Below are positions 19,046 through 59,099 of a stretch of 64,000 nt of DNA, piece after piece. Both the position numbers and the translations under genes were made by a program. The stretch lies in the NCBI GenBank assembly GCA_963663765.2, contig CAXXUA010000005.1, forward strand, positions 640,001-704,000, given 5' to 3'. The notes below the pieces were generated by a model that saw nothing but the letters and a program-made list of their open reading frames with translations, searched no databases and was not told where the DNA came from. The stretch comes from Candidatus Poribacteria bacterium. Lineage in GTDB: Bacteria; Poribacteria; WGA-4E; WGA-3G. Each line of letters begins with the position of its first letter. Position 1 is the first letter of the stretch.

Positions 19046-19167
19046 CAGGACTTACGCACACAACGGTAGGCGCGCTTTGTAAGCGCGCTGGAAACCGAAA
19101 AAATGCTGAAAATTACACCATTTTCGTCATAATTCTTCATCAAATCATGAAAACTGCGTAAGTCCTG
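19046..19167 (+). mobile_element. 122-bp MITE with CAGGACTTACGCA TIR
   Basis: Perfect 13-bp TIR; 5-bp TSD TTATT; a 5'-truncated sister copy lies at ~19242-19331. Confidence 0.92.
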
Positions 19168-20569: not shown

Positions 20570-21315
20570 CAGAGGCATTCAATTGTTGATGTTTGCGCCT
20601 AAGAGTGTAAGTGCTATTTTATGTCTTACTGCAAAATAGCAGAATACATAAGCTATTTCAGTAATAGGTTTTGCCATCTATGGCGCCTGCGTCTTATCTT
20701 CTGTGTAAATAATTGCGAATACATCAGCTGCCCACTCGCTGAGTGTTTTTTCTAAAGCACTGATGTCTTACTTTCAGGACTTACGCACCCAACGGTAGAC
20801 GCGCTTTGTAGGCGGGGAATGCCAAAAGGCATTCATACCGTTGATTTGGCGCTGGAAACCGAAAAAAATGCTGAAAATTAAACTATTTTCGTCATAATTC
20901 TTCATCAAATCATGAAAACTGCGTAAGTCCTGACTTTTTGAAACAATAATGGACTGTTGAGGCATAGGGTGTCTTCTGATAGGTGAACCCAAGGGCTACA
21001 ACGAGTTTGGGCGGATAAGCGCACCCTTATTCTGCGATGGCACCATAACTACAATATCCACACATCATGGCGACTACAGAAAGACCTAAGATAGCAGGTA
21101 GCGGATGTCGTTTTCCTTGTAGGTTGCGTTTATCAGGAACTTCTGCTAACATATCAAGTAGATGGTGAGATGCTTTTTTCGTCATTATTACCTCCAAAGC
21201 ATAAATGCTTATATATTCTTTGAGGCAAAGTATATCAGATATAGCGTGACTTCTCATGCTATATCTGATATATACAGAATCTGCACAAAATAATATCGAC
21301 AATTGAATGCCTCTG
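20570..21315 (-). mobile_element. Internally deleted ISAs1-family element (second subfamily)
   Basis: 21-bp TIR CAGAGGCATTCAATTGT(T/C)GAT; remnants MTKKASHHLLD..QGKRHPL, DAGAIDGKT (~20670-20696) and a C-terminal-like tail; no TSD found. Confidence 0.8.
20775..20932 (+). mobile_element. CAGGACTTACGCA MITE (158 bp, with 35-nt insert) nested in the ISAs1 remnant
   Basis: TIRs; TSD ACTTT. Confidence 0.92.
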
Positions 21316-22785: not shown

Positions 22786-22804
22786 CAAATTTCCTCTGTT
22801 AAGG

Positions 22805-22926
22805 CAGGACTTACGCACCCAACGGTAGGCGTGCTTTGTAAGCGCGCTGGAAGAACAAATAATGTTGAAAATTACATCATTTTCATCACAATTCTTGATT
22901 AAATCATGAAAACTGCGTAAGTCCTG
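22805..22926 (+). mobile_element. 122-bp CAGGACTTACGCA MITE
   Basis: TIRs; imperfect TSD TAAGG/TAATG. Confidence 0.9.
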
Positions 22927-22934
22927 TAATGTTT

Positions 22935-25154: not shown

Positions 25155-25211
25155 GGTATGCTCCTATAAGAATTTGTCCAGTTGAATGCTTCTCGCTCTT
25201 TGAAATGTATT

Positions 25212-25497
25212 CAGGACTTACGCAAAAACGGTAGGCGGTGAATGCCTAAATGGCATTCATACCGTTGATTTGGTGCTTTGTAAGCGCGCTGGAAACCTAG
25301 AAAAATACTGATAATTATATCATTTTCATCCAGGACTTACGCACACAACGGTAGGCGTGCTTTGTAAGCGCGCCGGAAACCCAGAAAAACGCTGATAATG
25401 GCATCATTTTCATCATAATTTTTGATTTAATCAAGAAAACTGCGTAAGTCCTGTCATCATAATTTTTGATTTAATCAAGAATAATGCGTAAGTCCTA
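25212..25497 (+). mobile_element. CAGGACTTACGCA MITE carrying a 36-nt insert and a nested copy of its own family
   Basis: Outer TIRs (last base G>A); 6-bp TSD TGTATT. Confidence 0.88.
25331..25453 (+). mobile_element. Inner CAGGACTTACGCA MITE
   Basis: TIRs; TSD TCATC. Confidence 0.92.
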
Positions 25498-26080: not shown

Positions 26081-26194
26081 CAGGACTTACGCACCGAACG
26101 GTAGGCGGGGAATGCCAAAAGGCATTCATACCCGGGGAATGCCAAAAGGCATTCATACCCGGGGAATGCCAAAAGGCATTCATACCGTCCTACC
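26081..26194 (+). repeat. Left end of a CAGGACTTACGCA MITE followed by three tandem 27-bp hairpin units
   Basis: CGGGGAATGCCAAAAGGCATTCATACC at 26106, 26133, 26160. Confidence 0.9.
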
Positions 26195-37182: not shown

Positions 37183-37318
37183 CTCTTGTAGGAGGGGTTT
37201 TCAACCCCGATTTGAGAGGAAAAGCGTATAAAATCCAAATCAACGCCAGAAGCGCTTTAGGCTTCTGGCGGGGTTGAAAACCCCTCCCACAAGAGGTCAA
37301 AATCCTTAAATTGACGCT
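37183..37318. mobile_element. Partial GGCGTCAATTTAAG MITE with a 34-nt insert
   Basis: Matches ~1505-1606 except for an insert at 37235-37268. Confidence 0.75.
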
Positions 37319-42724: not shown

Positions 42725-43043
42725 TGGTGAAATATGAAAATAATTATACACTAACAGGTAGGAGCGACCTCCCGGTCGAGACCAGCAAAGCAACACTATG
42801 AATGCCTTAAGGCATTCATAGTGTTGCTCCTACAGAAGAAGTGTATTATTATACCATTTTCATGTGATAATGTCTCATTATCAGCGAAAATCTGGTAGGA
42901 GCGACCTCCCGGTCGCGACCGTTCATCGAGTTGATAGGAACGACCTCCCGGTCAAGACCAGCAAAGCAACACTATGAATGCCTTAAGGCATTCATAGTGT
43001 TGCTCCTACAGAAGAAGTGTATTATTATTTCAATAATACACCA
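42725..43043. mobile_element. Putative MITE (TGGTGAAATATGAAAATAATTA ends) with duplicated REP/palindrome cargo and a partial TACCA MITE
   Basis: Imperfect terminal inverted pair shared with 52139-52443 and 54018-54206; ~90-bp block duplicated at ~42759 and ~42935. Confidence 0.6.
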
Positions 43044-47512: not shown

Positions 47513-48625
47513 TTAGGCAGCTAAGCCTACCTGTTTGATATTTATTGCGGCGTTTATGTCTCTATCGTGTTCGGTTTTGCACGTAGGACATGTCCAGTGT
47601 CTATCTGCAAGTGTTAGATTGCCGTTTTTGCGTCCACAGCTGCTACAAGGTTTTGTTGTGGAATCCCATTGCCTAATTTGAACAAGTTTTTTATCATGTT
47701 TTGCACACTTGAATTCCAACAATTGAACAAACTGATAGAAAGCGAGATCACTCACTTTTCGTCCCCAGAGGCGTTTCATGCCATCTATATTGAGGGTTTC
47801 AAAGCACAAGGTATCAAAATGTCTGCAAAGGTCTGTAGCAAGTTTCCATTGCCAATCTAACCTCTGTCTTGATACTTTCCTATATTCTCTTGACAATGCA
47901 CGCTTAGCACCATACCAGTTATTAGAACCCTTGACTTTTCTACTAAAAGACTTGTTCAAAGTTCGCAACTTATTCAGTGATTGTTTCAGATATTGTGGTG
48001 ATTGTATTTTGTTTCCATCTGAGCTTGTGAGATATGTTTTCAATCCGAAATCAAAGCCAGCACTTTCACCTGTCTTTGCTATGGGTTTCGGTGTGTCAAC
48101 ATTATCACAGGAAAAACATATCCAGTAATCGCCACACTTGTCACGCTTGATAGTAATTGTTTTGATATCACCTGTTATTTCACGATGTTTATGAAAGGAA
48201 AACCACGTATCTATACAGTTGATCTTGATACGGTTCCCTTCAAGTTTATAACCTGCCTGTGTAAAGGTCATAGAGTTGTATTTGTGTTGGGGTTTGATTT
48301 TCGGTCTACCTACTTTGCGCGTTGTTTTGTCTGATACTCGTTCTTTGATATTCCGAAAGAACGCATCATACGCTTTGCCCATACGCAGCACAACGTCTTG
48401 CACAACTTGACTCGGTAAGTCTGCCCAATGAGGCTTTGTTCGCTTTTTCAACTTCGCAACATGAGCATTCATTCTATAGGCAGATACGTTTTTACCATAC
48501 ATACGGTAATATCTACGCTGCAATCGCATAATATGCACATGAATCTGGTGCATATCGTCAAGCATATTGCCTAACTTGATAGTGTTCTTTTGATTTTGTA
48601 TCTTGTATTTATAGGTTTTTTTCAT
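47513..48625 (-). CDS. tnpB: TnpB (distinct from the multicopy one)
   Basis: GFDFGL, FETL, CSSC/CPTC, DRDINAAINI. Confidence 0.93.
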   Translation of the reverse strand: MKKTYKYKIQNQKNTIKLGNMLDDMHQIHVHIMRLQRRYYRMYGKNVSAYRMNAHVAKLKKRTKPHWADLPSQVVQDVVLRMGKAYDAFFRNIKERVSDKTTRKVGRPKIKPQHKYNSMTFTQAGYKLEGNRIKINCIDTWFSFHKHREITGDIKTITIKRDKCGDYWICFSCDNVDTPKPIAKTGESAGFDFGLKTYLTSSDGNKIQSPQYLKQSLNKLRTLNKSFSRKVKGSNNWYGAKRALSREYRKVSRQRLDWQWKLATDLCRHFDTLCFETLNIDGMKRLWGRKVSDLAFYQFVQLLEFKCAKHDKKLVQIRQWDSTTKPCSSCGRKNGNLTLADRHWTCPTCKTEHDRDINAAINIKQVGLAA

Positions 48626-49041
48626 TGTCCGCTTTGACTTTCAATATAGTCTTTTATAACTTCAAGGGTTACACCACCACAAGAACTAACGAATTTTGAA
48701 CGCGTCCATAAAGACGGCAAGCGACTTTTCAAACTCGGATATTCTTCACGTAGAACTTTTGACGTATAACCTTTGATTTTACCGATAACTTTATCAATAG
48801 AATCTGTTGGGGGTATTTCTATCAGTAAATGGACATGTTCGGGTTGCGTTTCAACTTCCCTGATATAATACCTATATTCGTCCTGTTTTTCTTGTATAAG
48901 TTGTTTGAGTCTGCCTTGTAACTGTGCATCTAAAACTTTACGACGATACTTGGTACACCAAATTACGTGATATTGACAACTATAGATTGTCTTATTTGTT
49001 GTTCTATAATCACGTCTTTTATTTGATATTTTGAGCGGCAT
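48622..49041 (-). CDS. tnpA: Y1 HUH transposase TnpA
   Basis: YHVIWCTKYRR, EHVH (HUH), LWTRS, YIESQ. Confidence 0.95.
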   Translation of the reverse strand: MPLKISNKRRDYRTTNKTIYSCQYHVIWCTKYRRKVLDAQLQGRLKQLIQEKQDEYRYYIREVETQPEHVHLLIEIPPTDSIDKVIGKIKGYTSKVLREEYPSLKSRLPSLWTRSKFVSSCGGVTLEVIKDYIESQSGQ

Positions 49042-52138: not shown

Positions 52139-52443
52139 TGGTGAATTTTGAAAATAAGTTTACATTTCTACAATTTACCATATTTGCTGTCATGACAGAA
52201 TGGTATTCATTTATTTGGTAGGAGCGACCTCCAAATCAACGGTATGAATACCATTAAGGCATTCCCCGGTCTCGACTGTATTGATACATGGTCTCCATAC
52301 GGTCGCGACCAGGAGATTGCTCCTACCAACGTAGGGAACGGTCGCGACCAGGAGATCGCTCCTACCGAATACAAAAGGGAAACAAATAGCACGTCTACCA
52401 AAGCAGTCAACTGAAAACAATGTATAATTTTCATAATTCACCA
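52139..52443. mobile_element. Putative TGGTGAA-type MITE with GTAGGAGCG REP-like cargo
   Basis: TGGTGAATTTTGAAAAT..ATTTTCATAATTCACCA; contains the hairpin insert at 52231-52266. Confidence 0.65.
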
Positions 52444-57781: not shown

Positions 57782-59099
57782 TTATATTGGAAACGGTTTG
57801 AGTTGTTTCCAAACGACTTTTCCTGCTTCCGTGTCTCGTGCCCTTTCCTGAACAGCGTTGGGTCTTATTTGCACTCCACAGGCGTGACTTTCGGTGTGTC
57901 CCACCGTAGTTGGTTTCAAGTTTATTGCAGCGTTGACATCTCTATCTATAGACATATCACATTGACTGCAGTGATACATTCTTTCTGAAAGTGTTAGGTC
58001 TTTCTTTTTGTGTCCACAACCGGAACAGGTTTTACTACTTGCAAAGAACATATCTGCTTCTTTGACAGGTATACCGTGCACTTCTGCTTTTGTCTTGAGT
58101 TTTAACAGGAAACTGCCTAATGCTGTATCTGACAATGCTTTTGCGAGGTTTCTGTTCTTCAGCATATTAGTAACCTTGAGTGTCTCAATACCGATCACAG
58201 ATGCGAGGTTGACAATCTCTGTAGTTGCTTTATGATGTGCATCGTTTCGGATACAAGCGATACGATAGTAGATACGTTCTAACTTGTGTTTTTGTTTGAA
58301 CCAGTTGTTAGACTTGAAAACTTTTCTACTTAATCTACGTTGTTCTCTTGCTAACTTCTTTTCATATCGTTTCAGGGGTCTTGGATTATCATATTTCGTG
58401 CCATCACTCAATGTGGCAAGTGTGTTTATGCCTACATCTATACCAATCACAGGGTGCGTTGAATTATCAACTGCTTCGGTGTCCTCTGTTTCTATGGTGA
58501 TAGATACAAACCAACGATGTGCTGTCCTTGAGATCGTCACTTTCATAATCTTACCCACAAAACGCAATGATTCAAACATGCTAATCCAACCAATCTTAGG
58601 AAGTTTGATACGCTTACCTTCAACTTCTACAGATTGATTATTTGTGGTGAATGCGTCCTTTTTGCCACGCTTCTTGAACTTCGGAAATCTCGCACGCTTA
58701 CCAACCCAATTCGCAAGCGCAGCAGACAAGTTACCAAATATGCTTTTATTGGCTACAACCTGATCCATATCTTTAGTCCAACAGGACTTACGCAAAAACT
58801 GTAGGCGTGCTTTGTAAGCGCGCCGGAAACCCATAAAAACGCTGATAATTGCATCATTTTCATCATAATTCTTCATCAAATCATGAAAAATGCGTAAGTC
58901 CTGTCCAAGCATGTGCTTTCTTAGCAATATTAAATCGAGTGTTTAACTTCGCAGCGGATAAGAACTCATCATTTGCCAATGCAGACTTGAAATCTGCTAA
59001 TGCATGATTATATGAAAATCTCGCATAGCCACACTGTTGTGCAAACCATTTTCGTTGATTGTTATTTGGATTCAATGCAATCTTATGTGTTTTTAGCAT
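57782..59099 (-). pseudogene. tnpB: tnpB interrupted by a MITE after about codon 65
   Basis: N-terminal part 58904-59099 and C-terminal part 57782-58781 match the intact copies. Confidence 0.92.
58782..58903 (+). mobile_element. 122-bp CAGGACTTACGCA MITE inside tnpB
   Basis: TSD TCCAA; empty site TAGTCCAAGC seen in copies 1 and 2. Confidence 0.96.

Follow-up and report, generated by a model that had tools for sequence, protein, structure and literature searches.

CG-preceded hairpin units of 34-36 nt, apparently mobile, in small repeats of a sponge-symbiont Poribacteria genome

The 64,000-nt stretch of DNA analysed here (the window; C5:640001-704000 of G000, a Candidatus Poribacteria sponge-symbiont genome of 6.35 Mb in 15 contigs) carries four inserts of 34-36 nt, each a hairpin followed by the same 11-nt tail, which interrupt small hairpin repeats whose empty sister copies lie in the same window. 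We refer to these units as micro-elements. Our comparisons support the proposal, first made in an earlier note on this DNA, of an ultra-small element with a conserved structure and tail that inserts after CG into hairpins resembling repetitive extragenic palindromic (REP) sequences: the insert lengths are sharp, CG stands directly before 230 of 259 complete elements, 59 distinct flanking contexts are in use, and the filled state is scattered over the copies of the main host repeat. The units are probably discrete insertions that are mobilised in trans and follow a CG rule, a reading that leaves the enzyme open.

Results

The four inserts of the window

Micro-elements come in two main forms. 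Type I (35-36 nt) reads G(G/T)GAATGCC, loop, GGCATTC, ATAC and tail, and in type II (34 nt), which begins NCAAATGC, complementary arms of 8 nt enclose a loop of 7 nt (CATACGC and variants) and lead into the tail. All four inserts of the window lie where the earlier note had placed them (Table 1) and end in the exact tail CGTTGATTTGG. That note had put three of them after a CG and the fourth within 2 nt of one; in fact CG directly precedes all four. The window holds four exact copies of the tail and two with one mismatch, where 1.49 would be expected, and none of 100 shuffles gave six. When folded as single-stranded DNA (ssDNA) and compared with shuffles, three of the inserts fold clearly beyond chance (z = -3.0, -5.0 and -4.4) and the 52231 copy, which has a G-to-A change in its stem, folds weakly (z = -1.3), so the claim that all of them form a stem-loop holds firmly for three. 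The proposed pairing of the flanking CG with the CG of the tail is found in two of the four folds only. As the note had stated, there are no terminal inverted repeats (TIRs) and no target-site duplications, the insert boundaries sharing one G at most.

The inserts occupy three different repeat families, again as first described, and each family has empty sisters in the window. Two copies of a transposable element of the miniature inverted-repeat type (MITE) have been entered at different CGs of one hairpin, REP-1: the 20815 element follows GTAGGCG in the 3' arm (site B) of a MITE copy, and the 25238 element follows GGTAGGCG in the 5' arm (site A) of a partial copy, with an empty MITE copy directly on its 3' side. 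The latter element has 19 exact empty twins genome-wide when 14 nt of flank are taken on either side, and its joined 10+10 nt flanks (REP-1 in the MITE) find two empty matches in the window and 123 in the genome. The 37235 element sits after GGGGTTTTCAACCCCG in one arm of a second MITE; the window contains three exact empty versions of the arm GGGGTTTTCAACCCCGATTT, one of which, at 37194, is the other arm of this very copy. Finally, the 52231 element has entered the loop of a REP with a GTAG tag (GGTAGGAGCGACC...), where it follows GAGACCG and runs antisense to that tag, and the GACCGGGAGGTCGCTCCTACC REP has seven exact empties among 17 window matches (≤3 mismatches), two of which overlap or adjoin the filled copy.

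Copy number and exact ends across the genome

The tail occurs 428 times in the genome, where about three copies would be expected of a random 11-mer. Hairpin-plus-tail units were aligned genome-wide to empty sister repeats, as the earlier note had suggested, by joining left and right flanks of 14 nt each and allowing deletions of 20-79 nt that end within 6 nt of the tail end. An identical empty site was found elsewhere in the genome for 299 of the 428 tails. The deleted lengths peak at 36 nt (132 cases), 34 nt (73) and 35 nt (15). Lesser peaks at 70 and 72 nt correspond to nested pairs, and one at 20 nt arises from nested forms in which one tail lies 20 nt from another. The lengths are thus sharp, and no donor flank is carried along with the inserts. 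In 92 of the 132 cases of 36 nt and in 63 of the 73 cases of 34 nt the boundary may slide by exactly one base, a G, so any target duplication extends to one G at most.

Tails are scarce in genes (32 of the 428 fall within open reading frames, or ORFs, of at least 150 aa, though such ORFs cover 77% of the genome). Their orientation relative to neighbouring genes is unbiased, with 113 co-directional and 118 anti-directional copies between tandem gene pairs and a further 107 in divergent and 53 in convergent spacers; a function as a terminator or on the sense strand was rejected on this ground. A search of the window with Rfam gave no family at the gathering score and two chance-level miRNA matches (E ~0.3). 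A phage origin was rejected as well: the 16-mer CATACCGTTGATTTGG has seven matches in viral contigs, one of them reaching 19 nt, without the hairpin, and the type IIa 19-mer has none.

Target rule, nesting and orientation

The 259 complete elements of this genome were collected with a strict pattern and comprise 167 of type I and 92 of type II. The CG that precedes 230 of them makes up 3.5% of dinucleotides outside long ORFs. Another 17 follow the GG of another element's tail, as would be expected if a second insertion had struck the same CG. The 59 contexts, counted as 6+6 nt of flank, have CG alone in common. Those in the arms of REP-1 are GGTAGGCG^TGCTTT and TTTGTAGGCG^CGCTGG (the caret marks the insertion point), and others include GTCCCG^TAGGGAC, CATACG^CGCATT (in the type II loop), AACCCCG^ATTTT, CTACCCG^ACCTAC and GAGACCG^AGGTCG. 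The hosts are unrelated to one another, being REP-1, a GTCCC hairpin, the second MITE, a GTAGGAG REP and the loops of other micro-elements. In other genomes, a scan of one genome per species found at least 78 loci; among the matches listed, CG stands before 58 of 63 complete elements, and 45 contexts are represented.

The target exceeds a bare CG in REP-1. Both of the sites used there read GTAGGCG^, and site B is GTAGGCG in 27 filled copies and GTAAGCG in four, whereas the five commonest empty forms of site B (102 copies) all have GTAAGCG.

Successive levels of nesting can be followed in the host series GTCCC-G-TAGGGAC, of which 602 copies are empty, 56 carry a type II element, 43 carry a type I element inside the type II loop and nine reach a third level. 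At C5:1377870-1378260, about eleven type I units follow one another head to tail. Orientation is nearly constant within a host, with 133 forward and 3 reverse tails in 274 canonical MITE copies and 114 against none in the GTCCC host. In a relative (G018), runs of tails spaced exactly 34 nt apart represent tandem type II arrays.

Covarying stems, extended tails and stacks

The tail is invariant across all stems. Among inserts defined by the indel only, the stems CAAATGC, CAGAAGC and CGAATGC are each accompanied by an exactly complementary 3' arm. When copies from other species are added, four stem positions vary as pairs (AT/GC, AT/GC/CG, TA/AT and GC/AT), in a set that was filtered for at least 7 of 8 pairs and hence leans towards pairing.

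Two kinds of variant depart from the simple unit. One has extra 8-mers in the tail, following the form CG(TTGATTTC)nTTGATTTGG, with 97 elements having one extra unit and 12 having two; overall n ranges from 0 to at least 3 (for example at C15:140456), and the internal units end in C and the last in G. The TTGATT half-site of the tail is also held in a subterminal palindrome of the host MITE, CTTGATT(A/T)AATCAAG. The other kind consists of tail-less units of 27/28 nt, CG plus core, that stack ahead of type I elements. An empty twin exists for 121 of 132 stack junctions, the difference being 27 nt for 94 of them and 28 nt for 57, with both applying to some, and the junction CATACCCGGGGAAT is found 122 times against a single CATACCGGGGAAT. 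In MITE copies broken down into tokens, every core-CG-core stack has an 8-mer-extended tail; the stack at 26108-26186 of the window is tail-less. Simple cut-and-paste was tried as an origin of the stacks, with cuts at C^G or CG^, circular permutation, and duplication of one C or G, and none of these yields 'core-CG-core ... GTTGATTTC TTGATTTGG'.

The loop of type I elements sometimes carries a further hairpin, GAAGCATGC GCGTATG GCATGCTCC or a GCGAATGC... variant (for example at C3:7996 and C15:51494). Read on the opposite strand, its GCGTATG loop gives CATACGC, the loop of type II, which suggests that these hairpins are type II-like cores in the opposite orientation and without a tail.

The host MITE and the scatter of filled copies

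The main host is a 122-nt MITE with inverted ends CAGGACTTACGCA / TGCGTAAGTCCTG. It derives from an insertion sequence (IS) of 1091 nt that has a DDE-type ORF, makes 5-bp duplications and is present in eight copies. The 274 canonical MITE copies comprise 139 that are empty, 74 filled at site A, 22 at site B, 12 at both and 27 that are complex. A tree was built with FastTree from the last 78 nt of the MITE, outside the insert region, using 247 of these copies (the 27 'other' copies were dropped). A control label, the left end of the MITE, requires 11 changes on this tree against 42.9 in shuffles (minimum 35), showing that the tree carries signal. The filled/empty label requires 73 changes against 73.6 when shuffled, and the labels for site A and site B give 71 against 65.7 and 31 against 30.8. 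The filled state is therefore scattered on the tree, through many gains or losses or through conversion between copies. Pairwise differences among 24 simple site-A copies amount to 2.5% in the element and 16.7% in the next 40 nt of the MITE, in a comparison where the selecting pattern fixed part of the element and the ungapped alignment inflates the MITE figure.

The MITE is polymorphic between strains, as Logan contigs bypass whole copies at 20770-20932 (run X5) and 22802-22929 (run X7) of the window. The nearest species have only ~85-87% gene identity, and the whole repeat cluster after window position 25209 is absent there. Mobility of the micro-element itself is what we infer from comparison of sites within and between genomes. 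REP-1 variants also form long arrays resembling bacterial interspersed mosaic elements (BIMEs) (CTGCAGGCGTGCTTTGTCCGCGCGC, period ~60 nt) at C5:1375900-1377150 and C10:24700-25277.

Distribution across Poribacteria

The tail is amplified in the genus of the window (g1), where all 40 genomes have between 13 and 519 copies and a reversed-pattern control gives 0-10. It numbers 1-24 copies in 72 genomes from five other genera of the family and 0-14 copies in 52 other genomes that sample the phylum. Among the matches listed for the scan of one genome per species, 77 of the loci are from metagenome-assembled genomes of Poribacteria and one from an 'uncultured bacterium'. Subfamilies differ by species, one genome having 136 tails and only two type I 21-mers.

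Candidate movers

Genes for HUH enzymes of the Y1 kind are present in this genome. There are four IS200/IS605 copies with tnpA, one of them in the window (Table 1), whose left end begins TTAACACTATTCCG and is without the micro-element motif. One intact gene for a REP-associated tyrosine transposase (RAYT; NF047646, 122.5 bits; C4:621598-622074) is flanked by its own GTAG REPs, and a second, frameshifted and cut by the end of contig C10, has a REP-1 array for its neighbour, REP-1 being the principal host repeat. Homologues of RAYT are carried by 89 of the family's 112 genomes, in amplified and non-amplified genera alike. Of the RAYT/TnpA-REP and reverse transcriptase (RT) genes that the earlier note had proposed to look for, RAYT and tnpA are present in the genome, yet nothing here links either enzyme with the micro-element; RVT_1 (PF00078) and the IS110 DEDD domain gave no match at 1e-5 in this genome or in two relatives, G024 and G001. 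A master element or IS ending in the tail was also considered and rejected, as neither the Y1 loci nor the 1091-nt DDE IS carry the tail; this disposes of the alternative, raised at the outset, that the tail is simply the end of a known IS, as far as the resident IS200/IS605 and the 1091-nt IS are concerned.

Several observations speak against an HUH enzyme. No tail or hairpin lies within 1.5 kb of five of the six Y1 matches in this genome, and no micro-element was found in seven RAYT loci of five relatives, the RAYT genes being bordered by GTAG REPs of their own. PF01797 was not found (E ≤ 0.001) in four of the 40 genomes of the genus, among them G024 (one contig, 104 tails) and G001 (4 contigs, 102 tails), in which the type I 16-mer, allowing up to two mismatches, has 205 and 163 matches. 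A RAYT above the curated cut-off is present in just 25 of the 40 genomes and is only weakly linked with copy number, as the median number of tails is 93 with RAYT and 62 without (Mann-Whitney p = 0.057, the genomes not being independent). Moreover, the element is without a 5' GTAG tag and its right end is not CG. An HUH enzyme is therefore a candidate only; by analogy with known systems the mover could be of the Y1 kind (RAYT or IS200-like), though we would sooner doubt this than expect it. In one relative (G009) there are 21 Y1_Tnp matches, many of them split by TAG, yet 13 tails. The GC skew of these contigs of G000, computed as a guide to any bias towards the lagging-strand template, is noisy and shows no replichore signal.

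Discussion

Our comparisons show exact ends, the CG rule, nesting, many independent contexts, a conserved structure and confinement to intergenic DNA and to one genus. The best explanation is a non-autonomous unit made of a 7-9 bp hairpin, whose sequence is free provided that the arms pair, and of the invariant tail, which stays single-stranded. Probably an activity supplied in trans excises or copies this unit with exact ends and sets it, one way round, directly on the 3' side of a CG. That CG belongs to or adjoins a second small hairpin repeat, such as a REP, the arm of a MITE, or the loop or tail region of a resident micro-element. There is no target duplication, one G being shared at most. 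Repeated strikes at the same CG would give head-to-tail arrays, and a strike at a CG inside a resident element would give nesting. The substrate would be ssDNA: a hairpin-binding single-strand nuclease/ligase, acting by analogy with E. coli TnpA-REP, could recognise hairpin and tail, cut after the CG at the foot and after TTTGG, and join the unit into another exposed CG.

Some of our results sit uneasily with independent mobility. Both flanks are unique in only five of the 259 complete elements, and those too lie in REP-1-like hairpins, so copying of the hosts must contribute heavily to spread. Orientation is fixed within each host family, and copying would give the same. Between strains, no orthologous pair of filled and empty sites was found, the public contigs ending at repeats. 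Finally, the core-CG-core stacks, with their one extra C, and the 8-mer tail repeats match no simple scheme that we tried.

It could be argued that the micro-elements have no mobility of their own, and that a few ancient insertions or local duplications were carried about by host repeats, after which gene conversion shuffled the filled and empty states. Nearly all copies do lie in repeated hosts, the five with unique flanks being the exception, and the MITE is itself mobile, with a DDE parent and with whole copies absent from other strains' contigs. The fixed orientation in each host would follow, conversion could scatter the filled state over the MITE tree, and site B is filled in 26 of 123 copies of the CCCA subfamily against none of 53 in the AAAA subfamily. 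We nevertheless consider this account decidedly improbable. The 59 contexts here, and the 45 in other species among the matches listed, share CG only; the hosts are unrelated, and conversion needs flanking homology that is absent between host families; the inserts have sharp lengths and bring no donor flank; and the dominant subfamily differs from species to species. The earlier note had named one ancestral insertion, spread by host copying or conversion, as something that would refute its reading. The random scatter on the tree, together with these contexts, excludes the single ancestral insertion, and conversion between copies of the same host may be one route of spread. Template switching or slippage without a dedicated enzyme is quite unlikely too. 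Here a stalled strand ending in CG would jump to a hairpin preceded by CG, make a copy of it and return through G or GG microhomology, which would suit junctions that share 1 nt (G; 2-3 nt at 52231), the choice of hairpins as targets, and the presence of many elements in genomes without a detected Y1, RT or IS110 gene, and the tandem arrays, 8-mer tail repeats and 27/28-nt core stacks do resemble slippage products. However, chromosomal donors should leave ragged ends, and every right end is ...TTTGG to the base, no matter what came after it in a donor; stems vary and the tail does not; and amplification is seen in one genus, though hairpin repeats and RAYT homologues are found throughout the family.

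Two further routes can be considered. The RNA route proposed for cyanobacterial small dispersed repeats (SDRs), in which transcription of the unit is followed by its insertion into RNA or by reverse transcription, and then by fixation in DNA, seems to us the least credible of all: the elements share the size class, nesting and common fold of SDRs, and the hairpin and tail would fold as well in RNA, but PF00078 has no match at E ≤ 1e-5 in the three genomes searched (G000, G024 and G001), orientation relative to genes is balanced (113 against 118) and Rfam gives no match. It is highly unlikely, if a little less so, that a tyrosine or serine recombinase takes the hairpin for a folded site of the attC or dif kind and carries out the exchange close to the G^TT in the tail. 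Integron attC sites have R'' and R' cores, measure 57-141 nt and stand beside cassettes and an IntI gene. The GTTGATT of the tail is partly like the R' core GTTRRRY, the 8-7-8 geometry of arms and spacer resembles recombinase sites, and insertion is orientation-specific; yet the junction overlap is 1 nt where 2 nt (serine) or 6-8 nt (tyrosine) is required, the arms covary as a structure and are not conserved as a protein-binding sequence, and insertion takes place after CG, not at GTT. Among readings that keep the units as trans-mobilised insertions, one would make a single hairpin with a fixed 3' tail the complete cis unit of a CpG-directed micro-transposition whose mover is none of the usual enzymes. 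The absence of any detected Y1 HUH, RT or IS110 gene from genomes with 100-200 copies argues for it, and we hold it to be unlikely but worth keeping in mind.

To our knowledge, mobile DNA of so small a size is otherwise known only from the SDRs of the Nostocaceae, the subject of a 2008 study, and the mechanism there was never solved. In that study (Genome Res 18:1484), Elhai and colleagues reportedly described SDR1-8, with units of 21-27 nt, and proposed an RNA route. SDR5 is 21 nt long (PMC13756078) and inserts between the third and fourth base of GCGATCGC, that is, after the CG of GCG^ATCGC (PMC4390886, PMC5861425, PMC13756078). As far as these descriptions go, the micro-elements are like SDRs in being tiny and dispersed, in lying within repeats of other kinds (for SDRs, MITEs and short tandem repeats) as well as within their own copies, in having sequence subfamilies with one fold and compensatory changes, as we find here, in inserting precisely after CG, and in being confined to one lineage. 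They differ in length (34-36 nt and not 21-27, although tail-less 27/28-nt core units exist in stacks), in belonging to Poribacteria and not Nostocaceae, and in the invariant 11-nt 3' tail present in all subfamilies; the RNA route is also disfavoured for them. Membership of the SDRs by descent is very unlikely, given that 77 of the at least 78 loci are in Poribacteria (among the matches listed). A direct link to cyanobacterial SDR5 and the highly iterated palindrome HIP1 was rejected, as the 29 copies of HIP1 are no more than background, none is split by a repeated insert of 21 nt, and the organism is a member of the Poribacteria.

Likenesses to REP sequences and to the inverted REP doublets called REPINs are also evident. 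The micro-elements are intergenic imperfect hairpins within the 20-40 nt range, they are present in hundreds of copies and they have a conserved unpaired tag beside the stem; moreover, this genome holds true GTAG-tagged REPs, BIME-like arrays and RAYT genes. We know of no documented case, among REPs, of the precise insertion of single units into other REPs. The REP tag is defined as a conserved unpaired 5' tetranucleotide, GTAG or CGTC (PMC3733652, PMC3479197). E. coli TnpA-REP binds a hairpin with the conserved unpaired tag, needs no more than a dinucleotide (C^T), on either side of that hairpin, to cut ssDNA, and can transfer and join strands (PMC3479197). A cut at a bare dinucleotide parallels the bare CG of the micro-elements. 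Unlike in REPs, however, the tag is an 11-nt 3' tail and not a 5' GTAG or CGTC, the units are single or in direct head-to-tail arrays without the inverted doublets of REPINs, no RAYT is flanked by micro-elements in the loci examined, and RAYT was not found at the curated cut-off in 15 of the 40 genomes of the genus.

Transposition of the IS608 type proceeds through single strands, with a subterminal hairpin at the right end and insertion 3' of a short fixed sequence. Like IS200/IS605 elements, the micro-elements insert 3' of a short fixed sequence, in a set orientation and without target duplication, and their hairpin lies ~10 nt from the right end, as does the subterminal hairpin of IS608. 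They differ in having one hairpin and not two and a dinucleotide target, the ends of the resident IS (TTAACACTATTCCG...) are unrelated to theirs, and they are abundant in genomes without a detected Y1 gene. With classical MITEs they share non-autonomy, high copy number and intergenic location; they lack TIRs and target duplications and are one third the size of the 122-nt MITE, which is their host and not their relative.

The micro-elements are apparently among the smallest mobile DNA units seen, and the first of the SDR type outside cyanobacteria. No description of the element or its motif was found in the searchable literature, a search that left subscription papers and supplements outside; among the matches listed for the motif and its complement there are unrelated primers only. 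The same phenomena of nesting, a conserved fold and insertion after CG are thus met in an unrelated, uncultured phylum of sponge symbionts, and in a cleaner form than in SDRs, as the tail marks every copy and one genome offers hundreds of filled and empty pairs. Since 40 sequenced species of one genus carry 13-519 copies, the mover can be tested for by phylogenetic profiling and oligonucleotide biochemistry. If CpG-directed micro-transposition proved true, it would be a new mode of DNA mobilisation and an independent second origin of SDR-type elements outside cyanobacteria, and the 40 species would provide a tractable way into the unsolved SDR mechanism. In practical terms, short-read assemblies of Poribacteria are broken up by the elements together with their 8-mer tail repeats and stacks, which also inflate the apparent intergenic diversity between strains.

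Other features of the window and genome

The positions of the micro-elements and of the repeats and IS around them are collected in Table 1.

Table 1. Micro-elements, host repeats and insertion sequence located in the window
Feature	Position	Strand	Remarks
Type I micro-element, 35 nt	20815-20849	+	7-bp stem GAATGCC/GGCATTC, 4-nt loop, ATAC spacer, tail CGTTGATTTGG
Type I micro-element, GTG variant, 36 nt	25238-25273	+	Longer stem
Type II micro-element, 34 nt	37235-37268	-	8-bp stem CCAGAAGC/GCTTCTGG, 7-nt loop, tail
Type I micro-element, 36 nt	52231-52266	-	One stem mismatch
Empty arm GGGGTTTTCAACCCCGATTT	37194-37213	+	In the second-MITE copy whose other arm carries the 37235 element
Stack of three tail-less type I cores	26108-26186	+	Three 25-nt cores separated by CG; at a MITE left end, following GGTAGGCG
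MITE copy	19046-19167		
Host MITE copy with the 20815 element	20775-20932	+	Whole copy skipped in run X5 contig
Empty MITE copy	22805-22926	+	Skipped in run X7 contig
MITE copy	25212-25453		
Empty sister MITE copy	25331-25453	+	REP-1 hairpin GGTAGGCGTGCTTTGTAAGCGCGC intact
MITE copy	58782-58903		
IS200/IS605 element	47513-49041	-	tnpA at 48622-49041, 139 aa (NF033573, 141.7 bits), RNA-guided TnpB 370 aa

Tails also occur without a hairpin. Three direct copies of the 11-mer at C4:201049-201200, 50 and 91 nt apart and each followed by T(G/A), lie upstream of an ORF of 163 aa, and a related site is found at C13:448942; the genes beside the C4 and C13 sites are unrelated. The tails at these C4 and C13 sites might be protein-binding boxes that share the tail motif.

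A perfect palindrome of 36 nt, CAACACTATGAATGCC TTAA GGCATTCATAGTGTTG, is present twice in the window (42796-42831 and 42967-43002), within REPs of the GTAGGAG type. It contains the type I stem and no tail, and may be either a mirrored derivative of the micro-element or a separate family.

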